NCBI GenBank assembly: GCA_964527005.1
Contig: CAZGRH010000001.1
Span: 1 to 44,439, forward strand
DNA from: an uncultured Muribaculaceae bacterium
GTDB taxonomy: Bacteria > Cyanobacteriota > Vampirovibrionia > Gastranaerophilales > Gastranaerophilaceae
Direction of reading: 5' to 3'
Length of the DNA stretch: 44,439 bases
Made by a program: the position numbers and the translations under genes. The notes under the pieces were generated by a model, which saw only the letters and a program-made list of their open reading frames with translations, was not told the origin of the DNA and made no database searches. This document shows positions 3,703 to 42,583 of this stretch, one piece after another (position 1 is the first letter of the stretch; the number at the start of each line of letters is the position of its first letter).

Positions 3703-4539
3703 ATGAAAAAATTTACAATAAATGCCGATGATTTCGGATTAAGTGAAGAAAGAAACGAAGCAATTTTGCAAGGAATTTTATCAGGGGTGATAAATTCAAC
3801 TTCCATAATTGTAAACATGCCTGCATTTGACAATGCAATAAATACGATTTTACCTAAAATACCAAATATTAATTTGGGATTTCATTTTAATATTATGGAG
3901 GGAAAAGCGCTTACAAGTTCTGAATTATTAACGGATAAAAACGGTTATTTTAATAATTCTTATTTGCAATTAATTATAAAATCTTATAATCAAAATTTTT
4001 TAAATGCGCTGGAAATTGAGTTTAGAGCGCAAATAGAAAAAATTCTTGAATTTTACCCCGTTACAAATTTAGATTCTCATGTTCATATACACGCTATTCC
4101 TAATATTTTTAAATTGTTTTTGCGTTTAGCCAAAGAGTACAATATAAAATACATAAGAACTCAAAATGAAATTCCTTATTTAGTTAGTTCTTCGTTATTA
4201 AATTACAAATTTTATATAAACATTATAAAAAATATTCTTTTAAAATATTTTACTTATATAAACAAACAAGAATTAAAACACACCGATTTATTAACAAATG
4301 ATTATTTTATAGGCATTTTATATTCCGGATTTATGAGCGAAATTGCAATAAAAAACGGATTACTTAAAATAAAAGGAAAAGATAATTTTACGGAAGTAAT
4401 TTTTCATCCGTCAATGAAAGAAAATACACAAAATTATAAAGAATTTTTAATCACCAAAAATTCTTCATTAAAAGAATTTGCAAATAAATACAAATTTATA
4501 CAATGTTGTTTTAAAGATTTATTTGACAAACGATTTTAA
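3703..4539 (+). CDS. YdjC/ChbG/HpnK/NaxD-family carbohydrate deacetylase
   Basis: Begins MKKFTINADDFGLSEERNEAILQG, the typical YdjC N-terminus with the catalytic DDFG. Later metal-binding H-x-H (DSHVHIH). The ORF track opens at a TTG at 3616; I prefer ATG 3703 (or 3697) because AGGA at 3691-3694 precedes it. Confidence 0.8.
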   Translation: MKKFTINADDFGLSEERNEAILQGILSGVINSTSIIVNMPAFDNAINTILPKIPNINLGFHFNIMEGKALTSSELLTDKNGYFNNSYLQLIIKSYNQNFLNALEIEFRAQIEKILEFYPVTNLDSHVHIHAIPNIFKLFLRLAKEYNIKYIRTQNEIPYLVSSSLLNYKFYINIIKNILLKYFTYINKQELKHTDLLTNDYFIGILYSGFMSEIAIKNGLLKIKGKDNFTEVIFHPSMKENTQNYKEFLITKNSSLKEFANKYKFIQCCFKDLFDKRF

Positions 4540-6390
4540 AATAGTTTCTTTTGTTGTACCGTTTTCAAAAAGTTCCGTTATTGAATTAACTTTTTTACCC
4601 GCAAGTCTGTCTGTTTTATCTTTGCAAGCAGAGATTAAAACTTCAATTTCTTCAATAGTTGCATTTTGTGCCACCATATTATGTAATATTTTAACAAGTT
4701 TTTCATTTATATTGCCTTTTGTTTTACAAATATTTAAACATTTTTCCAAATCAGGCGGGAAATTGTAATTTTCACCGTTTATTTCAGATATAACCTTTAA
4801 AGCATCTTCTTTTACAATGTTGTTGTTATCGGCAGCGGCAGATAATACATCAGAAATTATTTGCTTCATTTTTATATCATGAAGTTCGGAGTCTTCAATT
4901 TTTTGTAAATCATCATACATATTTGAAATAGCCGTACTTACGTTTTTATCAAAAACGATTTTTTCCGTTAGTTCATTTAAAAGTTCATTAATTTTATATT
5001 CTTGCAAAAATAATGGTGCCGCAGTAAGTACAACATCTTTTACATCAGGATTTTCTTCAATTAATGGTAATATTTCCGTTATTTCTTTTTGTGTCATTAG
5101 TTTAGAGGTCATGTCGCAGATATTTTCTAATGTTTTTTGCGGTTCTTTTGAATTATTTATTTCATTTAAATATATTGAAACATCGCACGATAATACTCCC
5201 GCTTTTTTTAATGCGGTTATTGTTTCAAGATTTGTTTTATTAAGTTCTCCTTTTTTGTTGATACATTCTTTCATTAAATTTTTCATATCTTCGTATACAA
5301 TGCCGTTATTTCTCAAAAATGTGAATACACGAACAAATTTTGAATTTATAGCGCCATCTTTTGAGTAACTTTTTATGAAATCCGACATTACGTCAGTTTC
5401 AATTTTGTTAACTAACATTTCATAATGTTTTGTTTGTTCTTCTTTTGAAGCATTTTCGAAATCGTATCCCGAATAAAGAACATTATTATTTCTAATAATA
5501 TCAACCTTGTTTAAAAATTTCCAAATTTGAATTCCTGCTTTGTATATGGGATTATTTCTTTCTTCAGCTTCATTATTGCGTGTAGTGCTTAAAACTTTTT
5601 TAAGTGTAATTATTGAATTAATAGTATTTGGATTTATTTGCGAATTAAAATTAACTTTTGAGTCTTTTATAATTTTAACGCAAGATTTGGCAGGAATTCC
5701 CGCTTTATTTAATTTTATTAAATTTGTGACAACTTCTGATTTGTTTGTTCCCGTATAGTATTTAAAAAAATCAGCAAGAATTTTTGCATCTTCTTTTTCA
5801 ATTCCTGCTTGAGTAAAATAATCCAATGCTCTATATGCATTATTTTTAATTTTTACGGGAGAATCACCTGCTGAAACTTCGCAAAACATTAAGTCTTGAA
5901 AAGGCTTTCCTTTCTTTATTATATTTGTAATATCATCATATAAAGAAAGAGAAATATCACCTTTTGAACTTATTCCTTGTTGTATAATTTCGTCAAGTTC
6001 TTGTTTATTTATCCCTTCATTTTGAGCAAATATATATAATGCTTGAATGTCTGGAACTTTATATTCTTTTGTAAATTTGATTTTTACCGGAGAATATGCG
6101 TAATTCGTTGATGGTTGCGGATTTTCCCGTTTCTTTTTTAATTCAATTTCGCAATTTTCAATCCATCTTGTTTCATCCATCATTCGATTGGATTGTGCCG
6201 TTTTCTTTAATTCCGCTAACATATTTAGTTCTTTTTCTATAGTAACGGGAGAATTCGCAAAATCGGTTTTGGAATTTTTTTCTTTAAATTTTAAATATGC
6301 TTCTTTTTTCTTTCCATATTCCGTATATGATTTTTTCGGTGTTTTGTTTATTTTAATTTGTTTAGGATTTTGGACTTTTAATTCTTCCAT
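4519..6390 (-). CDS. Hypothetical protein, 623 aa, K/E/N-rich and predicted helical, with recurring SPV(T/K)I(E/K) and xAGI motifs
   Basis: Long uninterrupted ORF with no family I recognise. No signal peptide or TM helix seen. Confidence 0.65.
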   Translation of the reverse strand: MEELKVQNPKQIKINKTPKKSYTEYGKKKEAYLKFKEKNSKTDFANSPVTIEKELNMLAELKKTAQSNRMMDETRWIENCEIELKKKRENPQPSTNYAYSPVKIKFTKEYKVPDIQALYIFAQNEGINKQELDEIIQQGISSKGDISLSLYDDITNIIKKGKPFQDLMFCEVSAGDSPVKIKNNAYRALDYFTQAGIEKEDAKILADFFKYYTGTNKSEVVTNLIKLNKAGIPAKSCVKIIKDSKVNFNSQINPNTINSIITLKKVLSTTRNNEAEERNNPIYKAGIQIWKFLNKVDIIRNNNVLYSGYDFENASKEEQTKHYEMLVNKIETDVMSDFIKSYSKDGAINSKFVRVFTFLRNNGIVYEDMKNLMKECINKKGELNKTNLETITALKKAGVLSCDVSIYLNEINNSKEPQKTLENICDMTSKLMTQKEITEILPLIEENPDVKDVVLTAAPLFLQEYKINELLNELTEKIVFDKNVSTAISNMYDDLQKIEDSELHDIKMKQIISDVLSAAADNNNIVKEDALKVISEINGENYNFPPDLEKCLNICKTKGNINEKLVKILHNMVAQNATIEEIEVLISACKDKTDRLAGKKVNSITELFENGTTKETILKSFVK

Positions 6391-11302: not shown

Positions 11303-11458
11303 ATTAAATTTTATTACAGAATGTAAATACGTTTTATTCAAACAGTTATTGAATTTTTAACTGTATGGCAAAATAAATAAATTTTTCAATATCAAAAATA
11401 ATTTTTAGAGTGTTTTAAGCGAGTGTCGATAAATATAAGTTATATATACAGAAGAAAA

Positions 11459-12238
11459 ATGCGAAAAATTAATCCTATATATCATTCATCAATACTTGAT
11501 TTAAATACAACAAATACGCAACTGAAAGTTGATTTAAACAAACAGAATAAAAGAACAAAAAATTGTGATAAAATTAAAGTTATTTTAGCTTCGGGGATAG
11601 GTGCCGGTGTCGGTTTAAAATCAGGGATGTTTGTTTCTGATATATTTAAAGAAAATGCCATTAAAAATTTTAGTAATGAATATTCTCAAACAGAATATTG
11701 TAAAAGGAAATTTGTAAAGCATCTGGGTAAATTTTTAGTTGAATTCCTGCGTACGGAAGAAGATCTTGGTAAAGGTATTCGTATCGAGTCTATGTTAGTC
11801 AGAGGTTTAAAAAAAGCCAAAGAAGAATGTTATTACGGTAATTCTGTGTATCAACTTCCGCTATTTAACTTAATTAAAGAAAATGGCTTATATGCAAAAA
11901 GTAAATCGAGAGATGTTAAAAAATTATTTAAAAATCTTGTTGAGGAAAATCCTGAATTTACGACAGCAAATGGTACCGTTATAAATTATCAACATCTCAT
12001 TGATGATATAAGAAGAGTTTCGATGATCGAAATTTCGGAATGTAAAACATTAAAAGAACTTGCCAATGATAAATATAACAATTCCGAATTTTATAGAAAG
12101 GAAGCAATAAAAAAACTTATTCAAGCAAAAGCAATTATTGTTGCTTTTACCGTAATGGGTGCTTTATTGCTCGGTAAAATAACTGCTTCAGAATTAAAAA
12201 AGAAAAATGAAAGAAACAAAAAAGCTTCAATTAGATAA
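11459..12238 (+). CDS. Hypothetical membrane-associated protein
   Basis: The ORF track starts at GTG 11423; the first ATG is at 11459 (MRKINP...). Hydrophobic segments VILASGIGAGVGL and a C-terminal IIVAFTVMGALLLG. No family recognised. Confidence 0.55.
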   Translation: MRKINPIYHSSILDLNTTNTQLKVDLNKQNKRTKNCDKIKVILASGIGAGVGLKSGMFVSDIFKENAIKNFSNEYSQTEYCKRKFVKHLGKFLVEFLRTEEDLGKGIRIESMLVRGLKKAKEECYYGNSVYQLPLFNLIKENGLYAKSKSRDVKKLFKNLVEENPEFTTANGTVINYQHLIDDIRRVSMIEISECKTLKELANDKYNNSEFYRKEAIKKLIQAKAIIVAFTVMGALLLGKITASELKKKNERNKKASIR

Positions 12239-24093: not shown

Positions 24094-25803
24094 TTATATC
24101 AAATTCATTTTTTTTGATTCTTTCAGTGCATATTTTGCTTCTTGAGTAAATGCTTCTTTGTTAAAATTTTCAGGTTCTTTTGTTATGCATTTAAATCCGA
24201 AACCATATTGAAAAGCGGATGGTACTTGTGCAACGATGTGTTCGTATTCTCCTATTACTGAATTGACGCAGTGTTCAACCCCAGGGTCAATAACTGCCAA
24301 ATCGCCTTCTTTTAATATTTTAATTTCCGGTTTGCCCTCTTTTACAACAATTAAAGCAGCTGCACCGCTTGTTATCAAATACATTTCCGTTTGTCTTTTT
24401 TCTGCTAAATTAGGATGTTTATGCAATTTTTCGTCTTTTCTTAAATCAGACATTGCATAAATATTTTCATCATCCGTTTGTACAAGAGAAGCGCCTAAAA
24501 AAGGAGTTTGTCCTTTGCTTGAACCTAGTGCCGTAGAATTTGTTACCCAGTTCGTTTTTTCAAGTGTCCAATTGTTTAATTTGTCGTTTAGATTGTATAC
24601 CGCTGCATTTTTATCGATAAATTTTAATCCGCTTATGTCAAAGCCCGTGTTATCGACTTTTTTTAGGTATTCATAAACAGTTTCTTTTTCTTCTTGATTA
24701 AAATTGTATTCTTCTAATTTTTTTATAAGGTTTTCTTTATTTCCGTAAGATTCTTTCCAATAAAGCATATCGGTGTTTTCTTTATTGTTGTACAAAATAC
24801 CTGCTTTTTTTAGTTTCGTAATTAATTCTTTAGGCATATCATCGGCATTGTCTGTTCTCACAAATCTTGAATCAGTGTGTACCATCCTTGTTTGTTTGAA
24901 AATAGGCATAATTACGGCTATTTCTTCATCGGTAAACCCTTTTTCTTTTAATAAATTTTCTTCAAATTTATTATTATAAAATTGATTAAATCTTACATAT
25001 CCGTTTTCTTTTGTCGCAATAATTCCTTTGTCGAGCAATTTATCAAAAATATTTTTTGATTTTTCAAATTTTAATCGGTTTTCTTCACTCATCATATCTT
25101 TTTTTGAATTTAAGTCAAAAATTAGATTGTTTGCCGATTCGTATTTATTTATGTTTAATTCTTTTAAAAAGTTTTCTGATTTGAGTTCATCGGGTAATAA
25201 CATTGCAGGCGGAAAATCACCGTTATAAAGGTGTGAATTATAATAAGCCAGTTCTAAAAATTTGTTTTTAATATTCTCATCTTCTGCATTTTTGCCGTAT
25301 CGCTCATACCAATCGTAATCTTTTTTAGAAAAAATTACCATCGGATAACCTTTTTTTATATTGATTTTTGCTTCAGTGCCGCCGTTAATCATAACTGCGG
25401 AATTTTCATTTAAAGGAACGGTTTTTCCTTTTATTTCAAAAGTTCCTTCGCATTTTTTCGGAATTATAACTTGGGTGTCATATAAAAATTCGTTATCTCT
25501 ATTTAGGTATGAAATTGCTTTTTCACCATATATAACTTCGGTTTGCGAATCAAAATCAATAACATAAGACCCGTTATTTTTTGTTTCAAGTAATGGAATA
25601 TCTTCTTCTTTTGTAATAATAAATGCGCTTTTTATTGCAGGTGCATTTCCTCTAAAAGAAACAGGTAAAAAATTAGCCCTGACGTTTGCGCTTGAGTAAT
25701 TTGCAACAGGTTTCTCGGCATTATTTTGCAAAAGTTTTGAATTATTCTTTTGTGCCGTGTTTTTTATGTTATTAATTTGATTTTTTATTCCCGTGATTTT
25801 CAT
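24094..25803 (-). CDS. Hypothetical protein with a C-terminal cupin domain
   Basis: 569 aa. The C-terminal approx. 100 aa resemble cupin_2 (HKHPNLAEKRQTEMYLITSGAAALIVV...GDLAVIDPGVEHCV). The N-terminal 450 aa are unrecognised. Confidence 0.65.
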   Translation of the reverse strand: MKITGIKNQINNIKNTAQKNNSKLLQNNAEKPVANYSSANVRANFLPVSFRGNAPAIKSAFIITKEEDIPLLETKNNGSYVIDFDSQTEVIYGEKAISYLNRDNEFLYDTQVIIPKKCEGTFEIKGKTVPLNENSAVMINGGTEAKINIKKGYPMVIFSKKDYDWYERYGKNAEDENIKNKFLELAYYNSHLYNGDFPPAMLLPDELKSENFLKELNINKYESANNLIFDLNSKKDMMSEENRLKFEKSKNIFDKLLDKGIIATKENGYVRFNQFYNNKFEENLLKEKGFTDEEIAVIMPIFKQTRMVHTDSRFVRTDNADDMPKELITKLKKAGILYNNKENTDMLYWKESYGNKENLIKKLEEYNFNQEEKETVYEYLKKVDNTGFDISGLKFIDKNAAVYNLNDKLNNWTLEKTNWVTNSTALGSSKGQTPFLGASLVQTDDENIYAMSDLRKDEKLHKHPNLAEKRQTEMYLITSGAAALIVVKEGKPEIKILKEGDLAVIDPGVEHCVNSVIGEYEHIVAQVPSAFQYGFGFKCITKEPENFNKEAFTQEAKYALKESKKMNLI

Positions 25804-28997: not shown

Positions 28998-30611
28998 TTA
29001 TCTTTCCAATATAGTAATCATATTCACATAATCATTTATAGGAACGGTTTGAATTGCTTTTGATTTTGACATGTCATAAACAACATATTTTAAATCAGCC
29101 ATATTTGTAACTATTGCCATATTTGAATTAGGAATTGGTGTAAAGGCTTTTGAAAAACCATTTGTAGGAAGTTTTTCGTTATGAATTTTTTTATTTTTTA
29201 AATCGTAAGTGTAAATTGTATTATTTCCCGCACATAAAATATAAATATTATCGTTATTTTGGTAAATGTCAACGGGTTTTTCGCCAACGGGAATATCTTT
29301 TATTCCTGTTGCGTACATTTGAGAATTTTGAAGAAGTTTTTCATCGGCGGTATATTCTTTTTGAATTGTTTCATAATCCGTAACTATATCTTCCGTATAA
29401 TTTTGAGCTTCTTTTAGTTCATCTTGAGTTAATTTTGTTGCTTCTTTTATTTCTTTTTGTGATTTAGTTACTTTTGTATCTTGAAATAAATCGAAATATA
29501 CTATTCTTAAATCGGGTTTTGTTCTGGCAATTAAATACAAAACATTTTCACCTAATATTATTTCTGTAGTATTAGGATAATTAGTAATCAGTTTATTTGA
29601 ATAATTTTCATCAAGATTTAAAAGATATATGTTTGAGGTTTGCATATCCATATATGCTATTTGATTGGAATTTTTTGACAGTGTTAATCTTTGAGGAGCA
29701 CCGACAAGTTGTATCTTTTCTTTCATTGTCATTGTTTCTAAGTCAATTACCGACAAAGATTCATCTTTTGTACTTGCAACATAAGCTTTGTTATTTTTAT
29801 TATCAACCAAAATTTCAGACGGATAAGAGGTTAAATCAATGTGTTTTGCAACATATTCGTTTTTAACATCAATTACATCTAAGTTCTTTTTGTTTGCGGT
29901 TGCAACTAATAAAAATTGACCGTTCAAAACAGGCTTTATATCTTTCATTACGCCCGATGTTTTTAGAGAATATAACGGTTCAGAGATAGATGAAGAATAT
30001 ACTTGCAGATATTCCGTTTGAAAATTATTTACAAAAAACAGTTTATTTTTTAATTGTAAAGGAATATTTTGTATTTTTGTATCCGTAATTTTCTTACCGT
30101 TTGGAAGCGGTGCTCTTTTCTTTGCAACAAAAGCAGTGGTTTTTGCACTGCCGACCAAAGGAATTTGAACATCGCCTATAATTCCTGCTAATGTATCCGG
30201 TAAAACGAGTCCTTTTGGAACCATAATATCTTGAGGTAATAATCCGGTTTTTATTTCTTTTGGCAAATCGGGTATATCTTTTACGCTATATATTCCTTCT
30301 TCTGATTTCGTTACTTTTAACAAAGATAAATTATTATTGAATAAAATCATATCCGGCAATTTATCAATTGTTTGATTTTCGGGATATGTTTTAACAATTT
30401 TTATACTTTCTACTTCGCACGGATATGCGGGATATACCGGCAAATACATTATTTTATCGCTATATATAACAACTCCGTCAAATCTGACTGTCGGAACTTT
30501 TTTCTGTGAAAGTAAATAATCTTTTACATTTTTAGGTAATTGTGATGCATTTGCATACAATGCATTTACAAATAATATTAAAAATGCCAATAATAATGAT
30601 TTTATCTTCAT
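28998..30611 (-). CDS. Secreted beta-propeller repeat protein (YVTN/YncE-like)
   Basis: 537 aa. Signal peptide MKIKSLLLAFLILFVNALYANA. Recurrent short blade-like units (KAYVASTKDESLSVIDLETM, NLDVIDVKN, NTIYTYDLKN). Confidence 0.55.
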   Translation of the reverse strand: MKIKSLLLAFLILFVNALYANASQLPKNVKDYLLSQKKVPTVRFDGVVIYSDKIMYLPVYPAYPCEVESIKIVKTYPENQTIDKLPDMILFNNNLSLLKVTKSEEGIYSVKDIPDLPKEIKTGLLPQDIMVPKGLVLPDTLAGIIGDVQIPLVGSAKTTAFVAKKRAPLPNGKKITDTKIQNIPLQLKNKLFFVNNFQTEYLQVYSSSISEPLYSLKTSGVMKDIKPVLNGQFLLVATANKKNLDVIDVKNEYVAKHIDLTSYPSEILVDNKNNKAYVASTKDESLSVIDLETMTMKEKIQLVGAPQRLTLSKNSNQIAYMDMQTSNIYLLNLDENYSNKLITNYPNTTEIILGENVLYLIARTKPDLRIVYFDLFQDTKVTKSQKEIKEATKLTQDELKEAQNYTEDIVTDYETIQKEYTADEKLLQNSQMYATGIKDIPVGEKPVDIYQNNDNIYILCAGNNTIYTYDLKNKKIHNEKLPTNGFSKAFTPIPNSNMAIVTNMADLKYVVYDMSKSKAIQTVPINDYVNMITILER

Positions 30612-33572: not shown

Positions 33573-34559
33573 TTAATTATTTATTAAATATTTTGCTCGG
33601 TCACAAATTTCAAGTTTGTGAAAATTCATTTCTTGCGATTTTTGAATAACATATTTTATTAAATTTATAATGTTTTCATCAGGTTTGGAATTTCGATATT
33701 TGTTCAACCAACTGTTTTCAATGTCTATTACGATTATTTCTATATTATTTTTTTTGTTAAATGTCAGCCAATTATCAATTTCTTGTTTTGTGTCGTTAAT
33801 ATCGGGAATAATTATAAATTTGCTTATTACGTTATAGGATTTTTTTTGAGCTTTTGCATATTTCTTTAAATGATTACATACTTTATCAAAAGCATCAATT
33901 TGTTTTATTTTTTTGTAAGTTTCACGGCAAGAAGAATCAATTGAAATTACAACGGAAAGTTGCCCTGAAGTAATACCTTTTTCAATAGCTTTTGAATATT
34001 TTATACCGGAGGACGGTACCCTTATATTATCAAAACCATTTTTTAGAAATAGGGATATTAATTTGTCAAATTCGGGTAAAATAGTCGGTTCTCCGCCTCC
34101 GAAACCGATTGCTCCGTTTTTGCGAATTATTTTTTTATCAAACATATCTTTTATTATCGGATAAATGTTGTATGTTTTTAGTGAATTGTAGCGTTTTTTA
34201 TCTTCTTCCGTATAGCAATATGTGCAACGGCAATTACATTTTGTAAAATGGTCAAAAATTATACTGTCAAGATAGTTTGCTTGAGTCCATTCTCTTTCTT
34301 CTAAAAATACACACCCTTCGCAACCTTTAACGGTATTTCCGCTTTTTTGAATTTGTCTGTAATTTTCTTTGATTTTAAAAAATTCATCCCAATTGATTTT
34401 TTCACCGTGATAATTCTCAAAAATCATAGAGTTTCCGCCCCCGGGGGCGCTTACATAACAACAAAGCTTTACGTTAGAACCGTAAACACCGTTATCGAAA
34501 CAAACTCCGGATTCTAACCATTTACAACTGATATAACGTTCTTTTTTTATTTCCGACAT
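33573..34559 (-). CDS. Radical SAM protein with a Cys-rich N-terminal extension
   Basis: 328 aa. CNCRCTYC fits CX3CX2C, and GFGGGEPTI is the GGE motif. About 100 aa upstream of the cluster motif carry 7 further Cys (CKWLESGVC, KLCC, GCEGC). Confidence 0.8.
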   Translation of the reverse strand: MSEIKKERYISCKWLESGVCFDNGVYGSNVKLCCYVSAPGGGNSMIFENYHGEKINWDEFFKIKENYRQIQKSGNTVKGCEGCVFLEEREWTQANYLDSIIFDHFTKCNCRCTYCYTEEDKKRYNSLKTYNIYPIIKDMFDKKIIRKNGAIGFGGGEPTILPEFDKLISLFLKNGFDNIRVPSSGIKYSKAIEKGITSGQLSVVISIDSSCRETYKKIKQIDAFDKVCNHLKKYAKAQKKSYNVISKFIIIPDINDTKQEIDNWLTFNKKNNIEIIVIDIENSWLNKYRNSKPDENIINLIKYVIQKSQEMNFHKLEICDRAKYLINN

Positions 34560-34566
34560 AATTCTC

Positions 34567-35541
34567 TTATTTAAAATTACAATTTAAAAGTCTGCAATTC
34601 ATTTTGCATTTTGATATTTTTTCTCTTATTTCATCTGCTTTTGAGCTATACCATAAATCTTGCGGCAGATTATCTTTTAAATTTCCAATCGGCTCCATGC
34701 AGAAACATATTCTCCGATTTCCGTAAGGGTCAATTGCAAAATTATTTTCGCCTACGCTGCATTGAATTGATTGTATATCTTTCGGATTATCAATTAAAAT
34801 TTTAAATGCGTTTAATTGATTAAAACTGTTGCCAATAGGGTATCCTTTATTTTTTAATTCAATCATTTCATCAATTGCATTAAGTGCGGATTGTTTTATA
34901 TTTTGTTTATAAATTTGTTCTTCGGAATTTACTGCCGTAGAAAATGCATCTCCGTTATCCATAAGTTGAAAGCTTACTCCGATGTTTTCTGTTTTGCAAA
35001 ATTCCGCAATAGGTTTTATTTCGTTTAAATTAGACGGCATAACAACGGTTGATAAATAGATATTTTTCCATTTGTGTCCTGTTTTGTGTTTGTTTAAATA
35101 ATTCAAATTTTGAAGAGAATTTATTGTTCTTTCAAACGCATCGTCACGTCCTCTTGAAATATTGTGAATTTTCGGTTCTTTAATTGCGTTTATAGAGAAT
35201 GTTATATTCGTAAAAGCGGAATATAAAACTTTTTCTATTTTGTCCGGAAGTGCTAATCCGTTAGTAACGACATTGACCGTATCGCCTAAATTTGAGGCAT
35301 ATTCCGCCATCTCAAATACATCTTCACGAATAAAAGGTTCTCCGCCTGAAATTATAAATTGATAATTTCCCATCCAAGAGTGCAAGTTAAAAAGAATTGT
35401 TTTCCATTCTTCAATTGTTAATTCTTTTTCTTTCATTTCTGCGGGCGTTTTCCAACCGTTACAAGTAATACATCTCGATTGACAACGTTCCGTATTATTA
35501 AATGAAAATGATATGGGCTTTTTATTCGGTGATATCGGCAT
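34567..35541 (-). CDS. Radical SAM / SPASM(twitch)-domain protein
   Basis: CQSRCITC = CX3CX2C; ISGGEPF is the GGE motif. C-terminal CSVGENNFAIDPYGNRRIC fits CX12GX4C, followed by CKMNCRLLNC. The first ATG (35541) lies 2 nt after the GGDEF gene stop; the track opens at TTG 35550. Confidence 0.85.
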   Translation of the reverse strand: MPISPNKKPISFSFNNTERCQSRCITCNGWKTPAEMKEKELTIEEWKTILFNLHSWMGNYQFIISGGEPFIREDVFEMAEYASNLGDTVNVVTNGLALPDKIEKVLYSAFTNITFSINAIKEPKIHNISRGRDDAFERTINSLQNLNYLNKHKTGHKWKNIYLSTVVMPSNLNEIKPIAEFCKTENIGVSFQLMDNGDAFSTAVNSEEQIYKQNIKQSALNAIDEMIELKNKGYPIGNSFNQLNAFKILIDNPKDIQSIQCSVGENNFAIDPYGNRRICFCMEPIGNLKDNLPQDLWYSSKADEIREKISKCKMNCRLLNCNFK

Positions 35542-35543
35542 AA

Positions 35544-36422
35544 TTAACAATCCAAATTAATTTGTGAAAATAATGTAATCTTGTTTTTTCCTCGATTTTT
35601 TGAATTATAAAGTGCGTGTTCAGCGTATCTTATTAAAGAATTTGCGTTTTCTTCAAAGTTATCAACATTTGGATAAGAGGCGATTCCGCCTGAAATTTTT
35701 ACGGGATGACGTTCATCTTCACCTGCAGGCACAAAAGACATTTTTTCTACATCTCGTCTAAATCTTTCTGCAAAAATAAAGGCATTGGATTCGCTTGTAT
35801 TTGGAAGAATAACCATAAATTCTTCATCACCGTATCTAGTTACTACATCTTCTTTTCTCGCTAAATTTAAAAGCATATCGGATAGCCTTTTAAGTAAAAT
35901 ATCCCCTTGTTCATAACCGTACATATCATTAATAACTTTAAAAAAGTCAATATCGAATAATATGCAAGATACCGGAGTTTTGTATCTTTTTGAGCGTGAT
36001 AATTCTTCTTCAAGTCTTTCAAGTAAATATTTGCGGTTATGTAAACCTGTTAAATCGTCCGTTGTTGAAATATTGGAAATTTTTTCTTTTAGTTCGCTTA
36101 TTTTCGTTAAATTATTGACTTTTACCGAAAAATCAAATTCGTTTATCGGTTTTAAAATATAATCATAAGCTTCTGCACGAATATTTATGTCAACGGGAAT
36201 TTTGTCCGTAACGAATAATACGCAAGTCGGAAATTTCATAACCATTGAAAGTTCTTTTAGCTTTTCATAAGAAATATTTATAATTGCAACAGAAGGATTA
36301 TATTGCTCTATATGAGGCAGTTCAATATTATCAAGAGTTTTAATATCATATTTTGTATATTTTTTTGCTAAATCTGTTAATTGTTGGCTGTTACTTTGTG
36401 AAAAAATAATTAAATTATTCAT
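35544..36422 (-). CDS. Pseudo-receiver + GGDEF-domain protein (diguanylate cyclase family; non-canonical GDEEF active-site motif, RxxD I-site present)
   Basis: DDLTGLHNRKYL ... ILFDIDFFKVINDMYGYEQGD ... ARKEDVVTRYGDEEFMVILP. The N-terminal approx. 120 aa look REC-like (YDYILKP) but have no acidic pocket (LIIFSQSN, VAIINIS). Start placed at ATG 36422 behind GGAAAGGA; the track opens at 36500. Confidence 0.85.
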   Translation of the reverse strand: MNNLIIFSQSNSQQLTDLAKKYTKYDIKTLDNIELPHIEQYNPSVAIINISYEKLKELSMVMKFPTCVLFVTDKIPVDINIRAEAYDYILKPINEFDFSVKVNNLTKISELKEKISNISTTDDLTGLHNRKYLLERLEEELSRSKRYKTPVSCILFDIDFFKVINDMYGYEQGDILLKRLSDMLLNLARKEDVVTRYGDEEFMVILPNTSESNAFIFAERFRRDVEKMSFVPAGEDERHPVKISGGIASYPNVDNFEENANSLIRYAEHALYNSKNRGKNKITLFSQINLDC

Positions 36423-36559
36423 TAAATAATCCTTTCCGTTTATTAATTTAATTTTATCAAATTTCTTAAAAAAGTAAATAAATATAGTATTTTGTTTCAT
36501 ATTTTAAATAACTTGCCTGCGTGAAAGTTTATAAATATAATATAATTGGGAGGGATATC

Positions 36560-37732
36560 GTGCAAAGACAAAATTACACTTGCCAATATGAAACTGATAT
36601 GTATACATCAGCTTATGAACAGTATTATTTTAAAAATATGTCAACGGCACGAGTTAAACCGATAAATCATCAAGTTTATAAGTCGGTGAAAAGAAAACGC
36701 AAAAATAATATTTTAAATAAAATTATAACTTTTTCTTTTTTTATGGCTTTGTTGTTCGGAGTGTTCCCGTATTCTTTTAATAACTATGTTACAAATCTTT
36801 TTCCTCCGAATTCAAAAAAAATGTTAAATGTCGATTATAACCATTTGTTGTATCCAACGAATGATTATTTATATAAAGATTTGTTCTTGGGAAAATATAT
36901 AATTAAAAATACCGAATATTCAAAACCTTTGATGATAGATATGAAAGAATCTTATGAACGACAAGGTTTGAAAAAACAATTGTTAAATTTGGCTTCCGGC
37001 TATAAAAAAATATCACCGTCAATTTATGTATGGGAATATGATACAAAGTCTTATGTAAATATTAATGCTGATGATATATATCCTGCGGCAAGTATAATAA
37101 AAATACCTGTTTTAATTGAAATGTTTAGAGAAATTGAAAAAGGCAATTTCGGCTTATATGATAAAATGGTTTTGGAAGATTATTACAGAGCGTCGGGGTC
37201 CGGAAAACTTCAATATTCTCAAGGTGGAATTGCTCATACAATGGATTATTTGGCAAGAATAATGATAGAAAATTCCGATAATTCTTCTACAAATATGATA
37301 ATGGCGAAAATGGGCGGAATGCCGGAAGTAAATCGTGCATTAAATAAATGGGGTTTACATCGGACTCATATTAATAATTGGTTGCCTGATTTGGCGGGTA
37401 CTAATGTTACAACCGCAAAAGAAATGGCAAAAATGCTATATAATATTGACTCTACAAATATTTTAAATTCCGATTCAAAAAAGCATATATCTGATTACCT
37501 TTCTCATGTTAAAAATAATCGACTTTTACGGGCGGGATTGCCTGCGGGAGCTCAGTTATTGCATAAAACAGGAGATATAGGTTTTATGCTCGGTGATGCG
37601 GGTATAGTTAAAACTGCCAACGGTAAAAAATACCTTGTTGTTATTTTGGCAAAACGTCCTTATAATAATCAACAAGGCAAAAATTTTATAGTTGAAGCTT
37701 CTAAATTAATTTACAATAATATTGCATATTAA
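36560..37732 (+). CDS. Membrane-anchored class A beta-lactamase-like serine hydrolase (PF13354-like)
   Basis: SxxK (AASIIKIP), SDN (ENSDNSS) and KTG (HKTGDIG) in the correct order. One N-terminal TM helix (IITFSFFMALLFGVF). GTG 36560 is preceded by GGGAGGG at 6 nt; the track opens at GTG 36521. Confidence 0.8.
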   Translation: MQRQNYTCQYETDMYTSAYEQYYFKNMSTARVKPINHQVYKSVKRKRKNNILNKIITFSFFMALLFGVFPYSFNNYVTNLFPPNSKKMLNVDYNHLLYPTNDYLYKDLFLGKYIIKNTEYSKPLMIDMKESYERQGLKKQLLNLASGYKKISPSIYVWEYDTKSYVNINADDIYPAASIIKIPVLIEMFREIEKGNFGLYDKMVLEDYYRASGSGKLQYSQGGIAHTMDYLARIMIENSDNSSTNMIMAKMGGMPEVNRALNKWGLHRTHINNWLPDLAGTNVTTAKEMAKMLYNIDSTNILNSDSKKHISDYLSHVKNNRLLRAGLPAGAQLLHKTGDIGFMLGDAGIVKTANGKKYLVVILAKRPYNNQQGKNFIVEASKLIYNNIAY

Positions 37733-37744
37733 TTATATTCGCAA

Positions 37745-39238
37745 TTATGCGTATACATAAGGCGGACCGTTTTTTGTTTCAAACAGAATGTTATCAGCAA
37801 GTTGTTTTAATTCTTCTTTTGATTTGTTACCGCTCGTTGCTTGTCTGTCAAAATTTTCTATTAACGGATTAATTGCACTTTCTTTTTTTGCTTTAAAATT
37901 TCTGATTTCAACATCTACAAGACGTTTTCTTAAATTTAATTCTGTTTTTGCATTTTCTTTCAGTACTGCAACATCTTTAATAGCGTCAATTGCTTGTTTA
38001 AAAATATAACCGATTGCACTTGATAATGTAAATGCGTGAAAAATATATCTTGTAAATTTGTTTTTCGGATTTAGAACCCAATTATATAAATGTCCTCTGT
38101 TTTCATCTATATAGCAATAATATTGAATTTTTTTGGGAATACCGCCAAGCGCCGTGGGTGCATCCGCAAATATCATTTTTTTTGTAGTTTCAACCGAATT
38201 AATAATTTCTTGAATTTTATCATTGCTTAAATTATATTTTTGTCCGATTTCTTTTACAAATTCGGGCTTTGCGCAAATGGATTTCAGCATTTCAATAATT
38301 TGCGGAATATCATCGTTATTTGAATTTTGGCTCATTTTTTTTATGGATTCTATTGTCGCTTCTGTTATGTTGTTGGCAAAATTATTTGTTGCCTGAGCGG
38401 TTTTCCTAATATTTGATATACTGTATTTGCCCAGTAAAATTGCACTAATAACGACTCCTGCCGTAAGTGCAATATATTTTATATTGTTTTTCATTTCTTT
38501 TTTATTTGTATTTTCGTCTTTGTTTTTATTTTTAATAGGATTGTTTTTGAAAGAAATATATTGATTTAATAAATTTGAGTTTCCGAAAGAATTTTGTTCA
38601 TTATTTAAAATAAAATCAAAATGTTTTATATTTTTGTTCATTAATTCGTTAACAACATCCAGTTTTCCCGAAAAAGATTGTCTTTCAACATCAATTAAAT
38701 TTTCTTGAAGATATTTTTCTATATCTGCAGATTTTTTCTTTGTCCAAATTTCTTTAACTCCGTCAACAAATTTTGTTGCGGTAATTGTAATTGCACTCAT
38801 TAAAAACACTGCGGCAGCGCCTAAGATGTTTTTAAAATTAGGATCTCTTATTGCTCTGTATAGTGCAAATTGCGGTTCTTCTTTTATGTTCATGTTTACC
38901 GCCAAATCGGGTAATTGTTCAAAACTTTTTGAATTAAATATTGCATTTGACGATTTTTTTAAAATTATACTTAATCCCGCACAACCCGATAATATTATTC
39001 CTGTTCCTATTAATAACGGTTTTATTGCATTTTTAACATTAAAACAACTTTCTTCTTTATTGTTATTGTCAATTTGTGTTGATTTAGTGTTTGTCGGATT
39101 ATAAATCAAAAGTGAATTTTCAATTTCATTAAAATTAAATTGTTGTTGAGGTTGCTTTATGCAATTGTTTAATAATACACCTTTAAGTGTTCCGTTAATT
39201 TTTTGTTTTTCTTGTGCTTTAATCATTCCTACATTCAT
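37745..39238 (-). CDS. Hypothetical multi-pass membrane protein (497 aa), second gene of the riboswitch-led operon
   Basis: Hydrophobic helices LLIGTGIILSGCAGLSIIL, ILGAAAVFLMSAITITA, IALTAGVVISAILLG and possibly FHAFTLSSAIGYIF, separated by long N/K-rich soluble segments. No family recognised. Overlaps the upstream gene by about 20 nt. Confidence 0.6.
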   Translation of the reverse strand: MNVGMIKAQEKQKINGTLKGVLLNNCIKQPQQQFNFNEIENSLLIYNPTNTKSTQIDNNNKEESCFNVKNAIKPLLIGTGIILSGCAGLSIILKKSSNAIFNSKSFEQLPDLAVNMNIKEEPQFALYRAIRDPNFKNILGAAAVFLMSAITITATKFVDGVKEIWTKKKSADIEKYLQENLIDVERQSFSGKLDVVNELMNKNIKHFDFILNNEQNSFGNSNLLNQYISFKNNPIKNKNKDENTNKKEMKNNIKYIALTAGVVISAILLGKYSISNIRKTAQATNNFANNITEATIESIKKMSQNSNNDDIPQIIEMLKSICAKPEFVKEIGQKYNLSNDKIQEIINSVETTKKMIFADAPTALGGIPKKIQYYCYIDENRGHLYNWVLNPKNKFTRYIFHAFTLSSAIGYIFKQAIDAIKDVAVLKENAKTELNLRKRLVDVEIRNFKAKKESAINPLIENFDRQATSGNKSKEELKQLADNILFETKNGPPYVYA

Positions 39239-39947
39239 CTTTATCCCTATTCCTGTCTTTTTTCTTTCCTGACATTATTTTTATAATATATTTCTTTATT
39301 TCTCTTGATTTAAAAATTTGTAAATTTTCTTCATTGTTATAATTTTCATCTTCCATTTCCGGAAAAAATAACAGTACAAATTTTTTTAATTTCTTTTTAA
39401 CTTTTTCAATAACTTCTTTTTGAATAAATTTTTTAAATTCTCCGAATATGGCAATTAATTTTTCCGTAGCATGTTGAATTATTTGGTTTATATTTTGACG
39501 TAAATTGGCGAATTTCGTTAGTAAATTTGGTATATTTGACATAAAATTTAAAAACGGAGTTATCAAAATATTATTTATGAATGCAATCGGTTTTTGTAAA
39601 AATTGAGGCGCATTATTTTGCAGAATTAACAGTGAGTTTTGAATTTTTTCCGCAAATTTATCTATATTTTTTCCTAATCGGGTTAAATATTCCAATTCTT
39701 TTTGAAAACGTTCTTGAGCATTTTCAACTCTTTGTTCTTGAGCTTTCATTGCTAAGCCGACTGCATAGCACTTCATAAAAGACCATTCGTTTGATGCTTT
39801 TATTGGTTGGGAATTTTTTATTTTGGCTCCACCGCCTCCGCCCATAGCTCCGCTGCAAATAGGACAAGCTGCGGGTGGCAAGCCATGAGGGCATAATCCC
39901 GCTTTATTTGTTTGTTGAGATATGGGTGATGTTAAGTTTGTAGACAT
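39219..39947 (-). CDS. Hypothetical protein with an N-terminal CPHG-x6-CPxC motif and a Gly5 run, first gene of the riboswitch-led operon
   Basis: Starts MSTNLTSPISQQTNKAGLCPHGLPPAACPICSGAMGGGGGAK; the rest is predicted helical and K/E/Q-rich. ATG 39947 follows GTAAGG + 5 nt. The track's upstream extension to 39983 would run into the structured leader. Confidence 0.6.
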   Translation of the reverse strand: MSTNLTSPISQQTNKAGLCPHGLPPAACPICSGAMGGGGGAKIKNSQPIKASNEWSFMKCYAVGLAMKAQEQRVENAQERFQKELEYLTRLGKNIDKFAEKIQNSLLILQNNAPQFLQKPIAFINNILITPFLNFMSNIPNLLTKFANLRQNINQIIQHATEKLIAIFGEFKKFIQKEVIEKVKKKLKKFVLLFFPEMEDENYNNEENLQIFKSREIKKYIIKIMSGKKKDRNRDKDECRND

Positions 39948-40090
39948 AAAAACCTTACTTTTACGGTACGTAAGGCAGCTCAACCAACATTAAATATTAA
40001 TCGGATTTCGCAATTAATATTTACTATGGAGCATTCCGGCTTTAACGGTCGCGATCCGGCTCGGGGCTTGCACCCGATTTCCTCGTTTTT
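39948..40090 (-). promoter_or_regulatory. Cobalamin riboswitch-like leader (short, class II / AdoCbl-variant-like aptamer plus expression platform)
   Basis: GC-rich island in AT-rich DNA. The minus strand (40085 to 40028) reads CGAGGAAAUCGGGUGCAAGCCCCGAGCCGGAUCGCGACCGUUAAAGCCGGAAUGCUCC. Elements: GGAA; helix UCGGG/CCCGA capped by the loop UGCAAGC; ACCG-UUAAAGC-CGG hairpin; then AAUGCUCC pairing back to GAG. This matches the conserved cobalamin aptamer core as I remember it. Downstream there is a perfect 10-bp hairpin (39992-40022) and a CCUUAC/GUAAGG helix (39970-39975 / 39953-39958) that covers the RBS. Confidence 0.6.
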
Positions 40091-40095
40091 ATAAC

Positions 40096-40119
40096 TGTTA
40101 CAAATTATTTATTGTAACA
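40096..40119. other. 8-bp inverted repeat hairpin between ychF and the riboswitch-like leader
   Basis: TGTTACAA (40096-40103) / TTGTAACA (40112-40119) with an 8-nt loop. The T-tract (TTTTTATTTT) follows it only on the + strand, where no gene ends. On the minus strand it could be a U-tract-poor ychF terminator or part of the leader RNA. Confidence 0.3.
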
Positions 40120-40181: not shown

Positions 40182-41279
40182 TTACACATTAAATCTAAAG
40201 TGAACGATGTCGCCGTCTTGAATTATATAATCTTTACCTTCAAGTCTTGTTACCCCACGTTCTCTTGCAACGACATAAGAACCTGCATCTACAAAGTCGT
40301 TATATCCTGTAACTTCGGCTCTGATAAACCCTTTTTCAAAGTCAGTATGAATAACACCTGCAGCTTGAGGTGCTTTGGAGCCTGATTTTACCGTCCAAGC
40401 GTGAACTTCTTTTTCTCCTGCCGTAATAAATGTCGTCAAATTAAGTAATTTATATACGGATTTAATCATTCGTTCAATGCCGGAGCTTTCAACTCCGAGG
40501 TCTTTTAAATAGTCTTTTGCTTCTTCTTGTGATAAATCAACTAATTCAGCTTCTATTTTTGCAGAAATAACAACAACGTCAGCACCATGCTTGTTTGCAT
40601 ATTCTTTTACCGTATCAACATAAGCATTGCCGTTCGCTAAATCTGTTTCGCTTACATTTGCCGCATAAATTACCGGTTTTATGCACATTAGTTGAGAATT
40701 CTTTGCAACAACTAATTCGTCATCTTCAAAATGTTCTTCGGGATTAATAAATGTTTCTTTGGAAATTAATTCATATAATTTTGAAAGTACTTTTTGTTCT
40801 AAAATTGCTTGTTTATCACCTGTTTTTGCTATTTTTGAAATTCTTTCAATTCTTTTTTCCAAAGATGCCATGTCGGCAAGGGCTAATTCCGTGTTAATAA
40901 TTTCAATATCATCAATCGGGTTTATTTTTCCGGAAACGTGAATTGTATTTACGTCATCAAAACATCTGACAACTTGTATAATTGCATCAACTTCTCTGAT
41001 ATTTGCCAAAAATTGGTTGCCAAGCCCTTCTCCTTTGCTTGCACCTTTAACTAAACCAGCTATATCAACAAATTCAACGGCTGTCGGAATAATAGTTTGT
41101 GTTTTTACCAGATTTGCTAAAATCTGTAATCTTTCATCAGGAACATTTACGACTCCAACATTCGGCTCTATTGTGCAAAACGGAAAGTTTGCGCTTTGTG
41201 CATTGTTTGATGATGTAAGTGCATTAAATAAAGTTGATTTTCCCACATTGGGAAGTCCTACAATTCCTGTTCTTAACAT
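40182..41279 (-). CDS. ychF: Ribosome-binding ATPase YchF (Obg-like GTPase family)
   Basis: 365 aa. [28 protein letters not shown], and a C-terminal TGS/YchF domain ([26 protein letters not shown]). Confidence 0.95.
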
Positions 41280-41878: not shown

Positions 41879-42583
41879 ATGTGGAATTTGTTTAAAGTTT
41901 TTGATGATAATGCAAAATATTACGGTCATTTTATATCATTGGGATATAACTGCGAAAATGCTTTCAGATTTTTTAAAAAATATAAATTTGTGGAAGCAAG
42001 TCTTTTTACGTGGTGCAATAGTGTAAATATAGAAAATTTTAATTTAATATTGAATAATTTTGATAAAATAGGCACGGAGGGTTTTACGTTTAACGGAGCA
42101 ATGTGGAAAGACAATTTAAATAATATATATTTCCATGGTCTTGAAACGAAAAATTTTAAATATAATCAAACACCCGAAGAAACGGAAAAATTAGAGTCGG
42201 AATTAATAAGCAGAATAGCTCATTTAAAAGAAAAATTTAAAAATCAAGGTAATGACGGCAAAAAAAATTTATATACATATACATACCGAAGAAACGGCGA
42301 AACGTTGGAACGGGTGAAAATAAATATATTGAACTTGAAAAATAATATTAAAAATTTTTGTTTAAATGAATTTGATTTATTGGTTATATTGGAAAAAGAG
42401 GAAGAATTAAATCAATTGAGTTTTGATGATAATGTTTATATAAGATTTGTAGATAAATTTGCTCCTGAAAATAATGTGCCGACAAAAAAATATGACAAAA
42501 AATCTTGGAATAAAATTTTTAAAGAATTTAAACCGAATTTTAAGTTGAAAAAAAAGAAAAAATATAAATTTGAAGAGTATTAA
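41879..42583 (+). CDS. Hypothetical protein, possibly DUF1796 (putative papain-like cysteine peptidase) family
   Basis: 234 aa. N-terminal HFISLGYNCENAFRFFKKY resembles the (I/V)SLG-x-x-C motif I associate with DUF1796. Assignment is from memory only. Confidence 0.45.
   Translation: MWNLFKVFDDNAKYYGHFISLGYNCENAFRFFKKYKFVEASLFTWCNSVNIENFNLILNNFDKIGTEGFTFNGAMWKDNLNNIYFHGLETKNFKYNQTPEETEKLESELISRIAHLKEKFKNQGNDGKKNLYTYTYRRNGETLERVKINILNLKNNIKNFCLNEFDLLVILEKEEELNQLSFDDNVYIRFVDKFAPENNVPTKKYDKKSWNKIFKEFKPNFKLKKKKKYKFEEY

Follow-up and report, generated by a model that had tools for sequence, protein, structure and literature searches.

The stretch analyzed here (the window, 44,439 nucleotides (nt) at its full length) carries on its minus strand two overlapping genes, called gene 1 and gene 2 below, preceded by a 234-nt leader that lies downstream of the ychF GTPase gene (40182..41279, minus strand). 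It is very probable that this pair constitutes an orphan operon under the control of a cobalamin (vitamin B12) riboswitch. Together with its riboswitch, the pair forms a unit that is conserved in, and specific to, the gut Melainabacteria (Gastranaerophilales and related groups), in which it is near-universal. A role of the encoded proteins in corrinoid handling is put forward as a tentative proposal, and the statement as a whole, namely a riboswitch-controlled operon that also serves a corrinoid-related role, falls somewhat short of an even chance. The host lineage is a poorly understood, uncultured sister lineage of Cyanobacteria found in human and animal guts, and a literature search on Melainabacteria or Gastranaerophilales together with B12 or cobalamin riboswitches found nothing on this operon.

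The original prediction, made from the sequence alone, had proposed a candidate new cobalamin-regulated system in which a B12-type leader has two overlapping genes of no known family as its only cargo. This proposal stands: the leader contains a real cobalamin riboswitch, the proteins are uncharacterized, and the surveys of homologues described below are positive. The open reading frames (ORFs) lie exactly where the two genes had been placed and overlap by 20 nt. An alternative TTG start of gene 1 at 39983 was rejected, as the alignments of homologues begin at the ATG. Because a convergent class-A beta-lactamase-like gene (36521..37732, plus strand) ends 12 nt from the gene 2 stop, the transcription unit carries only gene 1 and gene 2. 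No B12 transporter was detected in the window, either by tblastn with the BtuB, FecCD, ABC and periplasmic-binding (PBP) proteins of a relative or by a Pfam scan of 30 window ORFs, which returned housekeeping families only; this agrees with the earlier statement that no BtuB/BtuFCD/ECF-CbrT-like gene is visible. There is also no B12 synthesis gene among the genes of these 44 kb. The two genes are located as follows:

37745..39238, minus strand: gene 2, 497 amino acids (aa), from the ORF list
39219..39947, minus strand: gene 1, 242 aa from the ATG, from the ORF list

The leader contains a class-II cobalamin aptamer

Judged by comparative sequence evidence, the leader is a cobalamin riboswitch of class II (the AdoCbl-variant type) with an L5-L13 kissing-loop hairpin, which bears out the B12-type leader of the original prediction. 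The aptamer comprises these elements:

40013..40102, minus strand: class-II cobalamin aptamer (AdoCbl-II / AdoCbl-variant type), four-way junction P3-P4-P5-P6, from Rfam RF01689 and covariation
40023..40095, minus strand: Rfam AdoCbl-II match, 33.5 bits, E 6.9e-6, in a permissive scan of 901 nt
40052..40056, minus strand: L5 loop GAUCG, within the aptamer

The default Rfam scan of the whole window reported no match, because the score of the window aptamer lies under the RF01689 gathering score, which is 36.5 bits. In orthologous leaders (loci are referred to by L numbers) the same model passes gathering, with 45.5 bits in L003, 44.7 in L090, 42.2 in L088, 40.8 in L005, 39.4 in L048 and 38.7 in L043. 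A set of 87 related loci was collected, and 29 upstream regions were aligned and converted into a covariance model, R1. In the alignment of the 29 leaders, paired cells make up 80% of the core helices overall and reach 97% in P4, 90% in P5 and 100% in P6, while P1 aligns poorly (46% paired). Thirteen core-helix pairs change on both sides, and the observed covariation score was reached by none of 500 shuffles. The window aptamer is intact at every column that is invariant among the 29 orthologous leaders, and R1 gives it 85 bits, a value to be read with the fact that the window sequence belonged to the R1 seed.

R1 gives one strong match per locus (49-97 bits), always on the coding strand and just upstream of gene 1, and elsewhere in about 1 Mb of related DNA, on both strands, R1 scores do not exceed 27 bits. 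The 90-nt match, whose 3' flank reaches into P13, ends 17-137 nt from the gene 1 start (median 53 nt). Among the 76 loci in which gene 1 is present and its upstream sequence extends over 200 nt or more, the aptamer is found ahead of gene 1 in 72, and it is also present in the distant family members L088-L090.

Expression platform

It has been described that the defining regulatory contact of this riboswitch class is an L5-L13 kissing loop with bulged, unpaired purines (PMC5028336). The corresponding elements of the leader, together with a hairpin that contains the Shine-Dalgarno (SD) sequence, are located as follows:

39994..40020, minus strand: P13 hairpin AUAUUAAU-UGCGAAAUCCG-AUUAAUAU, from the minimum-free-energy fold, position conserved across loci
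40002..40012, minus strand: L13 loop UGCGAAAUCCG, two-part complement of L5
39952..39976, minus strand: SD hairpin GCCUUAC-(11 nt)-GUAAGGU, from sequence reading and the minimum-free-energy fold
39953..39958, minus strand: Shine-Dalgarno sequence GUAAGG in the 3' arm of the SD hairpin, followed by a U-run and then the ATG at 39947

In the window, GCG of L13 pairs with CG of L5 plus the closing C, and UC of L13 pairs with GA of L5. Two-part complementarity between both loops is present in 41 of 58 distinct leaders, as compared with 27.3 +/- 2.6 (maximum 38) in 2000 partner shuffles. Moreover, minority variants of L5 are compensated in L13 in nine of 12 cases. The covarying loops include these: ..CCA followed by C in L5 is matched by GUG in L13 (L010, L023, L031), ..AGG followed by C by GCC (L014), GGG by CCC (L058, L059, L063, L076), GU.. 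by ..AC (L005, L043), and UG.. by ..CA (L003).

The layout CCTTAC...GTAAGG-T(5-7)-ATG recurs in most close orthologues, and the SD hairpin would act as an SD-sequestering or terminator-like element. A competing pairing by which the anti-SD would be released in the ligand-free state (through GUAA in L13 or the 3' strand of P1) was dropped, as it is not conserved across loci. By analogy with the behavior of the class, cobalamin binding would close the kissing loop and switch expression off, so that the proteins would be made at low cobalamin; the OFF step would consist of blocked translation and perhaps also of termination. The leader heads a translationally coupled operon, of two genes in the window and of three in most relatives.

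The leader shares with the AdoCbl-variant/class-II riboswitch (RF01689; env8 hydroxocobalamin) a compact P3-P6 junction without a large P6 extension and the conserved core nucleotides, as well as a P13 immediately 3' of the aptamer and the two-part pairing of loop L5 around unpaired purines (PMC5028336). The class-II family was described from marine metagenomes (PMC2864571), whereas here it is found in AT-rich gut Melainabacteria, and, as a further difference, the SD sequence does not lie in P13 but in a separate downstream hairpin with a U-run. In sequence terms, these RNAs are new, well-supported members of a known riboswitch class with a slightly unusual expression platform, and they offer a useful natural variant of the class-II switch on account of the separate SD hairpin and of the back-to-back divergent copies found in some genomes.

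Conservation and spread of the operon

In a collection of 5.8 billion proteins, 159 homologues of gene 1 and 404 of gene 2 were found, and a gene 2 relative is encoded by 382 species-representative genomes. All named homologues are hypothetical proteins of Gastranaerophilales / Avigastranaerophilus or of 'bacterium'. An exhaustive hidden Markov model search with a 61-sequence gene 2 profile against 1.84 billion cluster representatives returned only 158 clusters, with no sign of a larger superfamily. All 80 of the retrieved genome loci belong to Gastranaerophilales/Melainabacteria or to metagenome-assembled genomes (MAGs) that are apparently mislabelled. Some operon-bearing MAG records are titled 'uncultured Muribaculaceae' (L009, L027, L034, L054) or 'uncultured Gammaproteobacteria' (L041, L075); their gene 2 is 50-63% identical to that of the window, and their taxonomic labels are probably wrong.

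Wherever a locus extends far enough, gene 2 is immediately preceded by gene 1, and the stop/start overlap is conserved. The original prediction had asked whether homologues are always paired and always preceded by a cobalamin riboswitch: they are always paired where the locus has room, and the riboswitch stands ahead of them at the frequency given above, distant members included. A lone gene 2 homologue, without gene 1 and without riboswitch, occurs at L046:5896-7386 (+) and may be a paralogue with a different partner. L022 and L023 represent a single MAG with two copies of the gene pair.

In the relatives the operon is frequently longer. A third orphan gene of about 160-200 aa (gene 3) follows gene 2 in 53 of the 87 loci and in distant loci, and is absent from the window; one example is:

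L005:8242-8733, plus strand: gene 3, no Pfam match, no signal peptide

Scans of gene 3 against the Pfam, NCBIfam, PADLOC and PHROGs families gave nothing significant. The ancestral operon probably consisted of three genes, the third of which has been lost or relocated in the organism of the window. Distant members (on one 2.58-Mb contig and two others) display the same order of aptamer, gene 1-like gene, gene 2 and gene 3-like gene, with a gene 2 estimated to be roughly 30-35% identical to the window copy.

Neither protein belongs to a recognizable family. Gene 1 and gene 2 had no significant sequence-profile match in Pfam, NCBIfam, PADLOC, PHROGs or the PDB, and neither matched any Pfam or NCBIfam model or solved structure of BtuB, BtuC/FecCD, BtuD, BtuF, ECF-CbrT or BtuM. 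When 61 family members were scanned singly, only weak coiled-coil-type matches appeared. One source names the gene 1 homologue P0034 'cysteinyl-tRNA synthetase' and the gene 2 homologue P0285 'ribosomal protein S17E'; no profile search backs these names, which look like misannotations. Foldseek and sensitive profile searches place neither protein, and both fall outside every known family or fold class detectable here, in line with the original assignment to no family.

The gene 1 protein

The N-terminal part of gene 1 contains, as had been noted earlier, CPHGLPPAACPIC followed by GGGGG, and the long helices expected after it are predicted by AlphaFold2. The protein is organized as a Cys/His knuckle, C19-x-H21-G22-x5-C28-P-I-C31, to which C60 is added, followed by a linker rich in Gly and by a long hairpin of amphipathic helices. 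In the AlphaFold2 model, with a predicted local distance difference test (pLDDT) of 70, the hairpin is formed by helices H57-112 and H115-194 and is followed by H206-225, while the N-terminal part is unstructured. C19, H21, G22, C28, P29, I30, C31, G37, S56, C60, A69 and K163 are invariant even in members that are 26-31% identical. No signal peptide was found, and the protein is predicted to be cytoplasmic. A lipoprotein reading of its 'AGLC' was rejected, given that there is no signal peptide and that a Leu precedes the Cys.

Most gene 1 homologues read CPICSGxG, which fits the CxxCxGxG pattern of the DnaJ-type zinc finger and is preceded by a CxH pair. Unlike the DnaJ zinc finger, which has four repeats, gene 1 has a single one, with no Pfam match and no J domain: CxxCxGxG occurs once in most homologues, and the window copy reads CPICSGAM, without a match to Pfam DnaJ_CXXCXGXG (PF00684). 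The canonical B12-binding motif DxHxxG was looked for in gene 1 and is not present. The original prediction had regarded the Cys/His motif as a possible metal or corrinoid ligand; given the zinc-knuckle pattern in most homologues, a structural zinc site is at least as probable as a corrinoid ligand.

The long alpha-helical hairpin and the amphipathic helices predicted for gene 1 are features shared with PspA, Vipp1, ESCRT-III and apolipoprotein-like proteins. The similarity to PspA/Vipp1/ESCRT-III is, however, not significant, and the N-terminal Cys3His knuckle of gene 1 is absent from those families. The best Foldseek matches in the PDB were ESCRT-III, PspA, Vipp1 and saposin, none better than E 0.7; matches to ESCRT-III/PspA/Vipp1-type folds had E 0.7-7 and TM-scores of at most 0.33. 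In the scan of the 61 members, the weak Pfam matches that recur are to amphipathic-helix families, namely Baculo_PEP_C (32 of 61 members), apolipoprotein and phasin; PspA_IM30 and Snf7 are not among the 25 commonest of the 125 families matched.

The gene 2 protein

Hydropathy analysis of gene 2 identifies three clear transmembrane (TM) segments (~74-94, 138-158 and 255-275) and a weaker one (~397-417), in agreement with the three to four TM helices initially proposed. The fourth segment is supported by an internal duplication, since hhalign aligns residues 122-197 with residues 380-456 (E 3.3e-4, 28% identity). This alignment points to a duplicated module in which a conserved motif ahead of the membrane is followed by a TM segment and then by a stalk helix, the stalk helices lying at 159-211 and 418-469. 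No relationship between gene 1 and the halves of gene 2 was detected by hhalign. The AlphaFold2 model (pLDDT 67) is all-helical, with very long helices at H135-211, H240-305 and H394-469, and the density of Lys and Arg modestly favors an N-in topology with both stalks in the cytoplasm. The regions kept in the most distant members are the stalks and a C-terminal NGPP(Y/F)(V/I)Y, which reads NGPPYVY in the window copy; the loop with Cys375 and His383 is not conserved in those members.

On the basis of these models, gene 2 resembles a membrane anchor with four TM segments and coiled-coil stalks rather than a transporter. None of its Foldseek matches in the PDB was significant, the best being PaxB, TTYH and ClyA (E at least 0.19); the alpha-helical pore-forming toxins ClyA and XaxAB/PaxB were the top matches, with E 0.19-1.3 and TM-scores of at most 0.29. 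The NCBIfam model HpsJ_like_C was rejected for gene 2, as its match (E 0.019, 14.7 bits) lies far below the 140-bit cut-off. The topology is superficially similar to that of the MotA/ExbB/TolQ stators, with 3-4 TM segments and long cytoplasmic helices; MotA/ExbB/TolQ (PF01618) is not among the Pfam families listed as matched, and there is no ExbB or MotA among the top 50 Foldseek matches.

Neighboring genes and the wider B12 regulon

The neighbors of the operon vary, with ychF upstream in 25 loci. In eight loci of closely related species, a btuB-fecCD-ABC-PBP operon adjoins the pair and is divergent from it. Upstream of the divergent btuB-like receptor there is an element (L005:5613-5716 (-), also in L018, L019, L020, L028, L030 and L052) whose core resembles the four-way junction of cobalamin aptamers and whose third hairpin contains an insertion of 21 nt; R1 scores it weakly (22-27 bits). 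It is not recognized by Rfam and is not counted as an established riboswitch, but may be a cobalamin aptamer that has diverged. In L162 and L138 the divergent neighbor is nrdD, which encodes a B12-independent ribonucleotide reductase and has its own aptamer of the same type, so that two riboswitches stand back to back about 60 nt apart:

L162, 9675-9764 (minus strand) and 9826-9917 (plus strand): back-to-back aptamers, one driving gene 1-gene 2-gene 3 and the other nrdD
L138, 3397-3488 (minus strand) and 3550-3639 (plus strand): back-to-back aptamers, one driving gene 1-gene 2-gene 3 and the other nrdD

Because in relatives it stands back to back with riboswitch-controlled nrdD or next to btuB-btuFCD, the operon is part of the B12 regulon. 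When metagenomes were scanned with the aptamer core and the first downstream ORF was inspected in about 111 loci, this ORF was NrdD in 25, gene 1 in 21, a member of a marine-type orphan family in 16, in four a TonB-dependent receptor, and, more rarely, DUF4430 (two loci) and an ECF S-component-like protein (one locus). The known cargo of this aptamer type is thus the classic B12 regulon, of which the gene pair is a regular member in Melainabacteria. A BtuB-like receptor stands under a same-type aptamer in L166, an AT-rich contig without lineage assignment. Taken together, the survey sketches a B12 regulon for the lineage (btuB-btuFCD, nrdD, a btuR-like gene and the gene 1-gene 2 operon) and suggests that these bacteria salvage corrinoids.

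Other cargo was observed in the same scan. The 16-locus orphan family (~290-420 aa) comes from environmental, non-gut metagenomes (L105, L118, L128, L139, L146, L157, L168, L174, L178 and others), and its longest member, that of L178, has no Pfam match. In the very AT-rich contigs (GC 0.28) L198, L101 and L209, a same-type aptamer is followed by a small orphan ORF of 118-151 aa; of these contigs, L198 (5376-6851 (-)) was inspected further downstream, and there the ORF is succeeded by a protein in which a CobA/BtuR-type GKGKTTAA motif was recognized by eye.

Proposed role and alternative explanations

Orphan genes behind riboswitches are informative because the RNA names the metabolite involved, and more than once they have pointed the way to transporters and cofactor-handling proteins that were new. 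When the riboswitch is of the B12 type, such genes are no surprise in themselves and have historically fallen into the uptake/accessory class; the link described here is unusually clean, with one aptamer type in one position ahead of a whole protein family. It is the regulation of the operon that points to a possible corrinoid-related or B12-sparing role. An accessory corrinoid role is favored because of the membrane location, the salvage-type regulon and the lack of any enzyme-like feature, and the existence of a gene 1-gene 2 complex is inferred from translational coupling and strict pairing. In the model that we favor, gene 2 would anchor the complex in the inner membrane through four TM segments and would consist of a module present twice, each with a TM hairpin and a stalk helix of about 50 residues. 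Gene 1 would be its partner in the cytoplasm, in which a Cys3His knuckle, probably binding zinc, is combined with an apolipoprotein-like hairpin that may dock on the stalks or on the membrane surface. Induced by starvation, this inner-membrane complex might, at a guess, aid the acquisition or handling of imported corrinoid alongside BtuB/BtuFCD, for example by taking over the cofactor, or passing it on, on the cytoplasmic side, without being itself a transporter. A functional analogy is offered by the mammalian lysosomal B12 hand-off, in which a membrane protein and soluble cytoplasmic cobalamin receivers (LMBD1/ABCD4 with MMACHC/MMADHC) operate with Cys/His chemistry; the resemblance would be one of function only, with no homology. 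In its most specific form, gene 1 and gene 2, with gene 3 in relatives, would represent an unrecognized Melainabacteria-specific cobalamin machinery, an inner-membrane platform that passes on or processes importer-delivered corrinoid, with the Cys3His(+Cys) site of gene 1 taking part in cobalt ligation or redox chemistry; we consider this form possible, if on balance unlikely. Once known, the function of the complex would add a new part to bacterial B12 acquisition or trafficking, or a new B12-starvation response.

Several observations weigh against the accessory corrinoid role or against the regulation on which it is founded. The window aptamer lies 3 bits under the gathering score and contains a C-A mismatch in P5. 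Four loci, L001 (5878-6000), L033, L038 (~5260-5291) and L042, keep gene 1 and gene 2 and have lost the aptamer, and therefore B12 control is not the only setting in which the function of the operon is needed. P13 and the SD hairpin are separate elements, and a coupling of the kissing loop to SD access is presumed. The species with btuB adjacency are 79-90% identical and amount to about one evolutionary event, while the adjacency to nrdD fits a B12-sparing function equally well. The AlphaFold2 models of both proteins are moderate (pLDDT 67-70, predicted template-modeling score 0.34-0.48), and neither protein shows any resemblance to corrinoid binders, transporters or enzymes already known. Gene 1 begins about 30-40 nt past ychF in L038 and L042, which suggests read-through from that gene.

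The main competitor is a B12-sparing or back-up function, in which the operon would be switched on without B12 to replace or offset a lost B12-dependent process, as nrdD or metE do. The operon shares its regulatory logic with such B12-independent isozymes (NrdD, MetE) and is divergent from nrdD, with its same-type aptamer, in L162 and L138; among the known cargo of the aptamer subtype, NrdD is the most frequent in the metagenome sample, and the retention of the operon in four loci without riboswitch would also fit. Unlike NrdD and MetE, however, the gene pair has no catalytic domain and encodes helical structural proteins: no enzyme-like fold or motif was recognized, both products being all-helical with coiled coils and TM segments, and there is no known B12-dependent process that a structural membrane complex could replace. 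Such a function is accordingly regarded as distinctly unlikely. The helical architecture itself would be accounted for by a membrane-remodeling or envelope-stress complex induced by B12 starvation, acting for example in vesicle formation or membrane protection, with gene 1 as a PspA/Vipp1/ESCRT-III- or apolipoprotein-like coat on the gene 2 anchor. This is consistent with the long hairpin of gene 1, with the identity of its best, non-significant Foldseek matches, with its recurrent weak matches to Baculo_PEP_C, apolipoprotein and phasin, and with the two TM hairpins of gene 2, which recall a reticulon-like layout. The structural matches are, though, such as would be expected of any long helical hairpin (E at least 0.7, TM-scores not above 0.33), PspA or Snf7 matches are lacking among the 25 commonest Pfam families, and there is no known reason for a tie to B12, all of which makes this explanation quite improbable. 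Signaling is a further option, with gene 2 sensing the outside through two extracytoplasmic loops (43 and ~120 aa) and its stalks signaling to gene 1 as an anti-sigma-like protein or adaptor. The stalk helices that emerge from TM2 and TM4 resemble chemoreceptor signaling helices, weak Foldseek matches include chemoreceptor cytoplasmic domains, HAMP fusions and CpxA, and conservation of gene 2 among distant members is highest in the stalks and in the C-terminal NGPPYVY. All these matches are non-significant, however, no output domain, helix-turn-helix, kinase or sigma factor is found nearby, and the CxH-x6-CxxC pattern of gene 1 differs from the zinc anti-sigma motif, which is Hx3Cx2C. A signaling module is consequently very unlikely.

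Two remaining explanations concern the ligand and its transport. In a strong version of the original prediction, the pair would itself be a new corrinoid capture or inner-membrane uptake system taking the place of BtuB/BtuFCD/ECF-CbrT, in which the Cys/His motif would ligate cobalt. It has in its favor the control by a cobalamin riboswitch, the membrane nature of gene 2, the invariant Cys and His of gene 1 and a window without B12 transporter. With the known B12 uptake sets (BtuB, BtuFCD, BtuG/BtuH, BtuM, ECF-CbrT, DUF4430) the operon has in common the type of regulation, membrane association and, in some relatives, btuB-btuFCD adjacency; it differs from them in having no sequence or fold similarity, a cytoplasmic gene 1 and a gene 2 that is not transporter-like. 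The replacement of BtuB/BtuFCD is weakened by the divergent btuB-fecCD-ABC-PBP operon that adjoins the pair in close relatives, since the lineage already has canonical transporters, whose absence from host genomes the original prediction had proposed to check, and a BtuB-like receptor is controlled by a same-type aptamer in L166. Because it has no signal peptide, gene 1 cannot capture corrinoids outside the cell. In addition, gene 2 has only four TM segments and is mostly coiled coil by mass, its Cys375 and His383 are not conserved, and the motif of gene 1 fits a CxxCxGxG zinc knuckle. A stand-alone transporter is thus highly unlikely, and is the least likely of the B12-related readings. Finally, the aptamer might have drifted to another ligand or be a relic, leaving the operon without B12 regulation in this organism. 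The window copy was missed by the default scan, being below gathering, it has the P5 mismatch, and the element was lost in some lineages. On the other hand, it retains all the columns invariant in the 29 leaders, the P13 and the kissing-loop complement, and the C-A variant is shared with several orthologues whose cores are otherwise perfect, which renders drift or decay extremely unlikely.

Other features of the window

The rest of the window is ordinary chromosome, with gyrA, uppS, rdgB, sbcCD-like, recN, nadK, dnaJ, grpE, GGDEF, radical SAM and MBOAT genes recognized by Pfam among the 30 window ORFs. Five ORFs of 234-623 aa, at 28998..30611 (-), 24094..25803 (-), 4519..6390 (-), 11423..12238 (+) and 41879..42583 (+), have no Pfam match at a threshold of 1e-5 (1e-3 for 41879..42583). 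Among these, the ORF of 537 aa comes after grpE-dnaJ and ahead of a 185-aa ORF and nadK. In the region 33573..36500 (-), two neighboring radical SAM genes, one of them with a SPASM domain, are found beside a GGDEF diguanylate cyclase gene; this pair could be a small peptide-maturation or modification cluster, not connected with the B12 operon.

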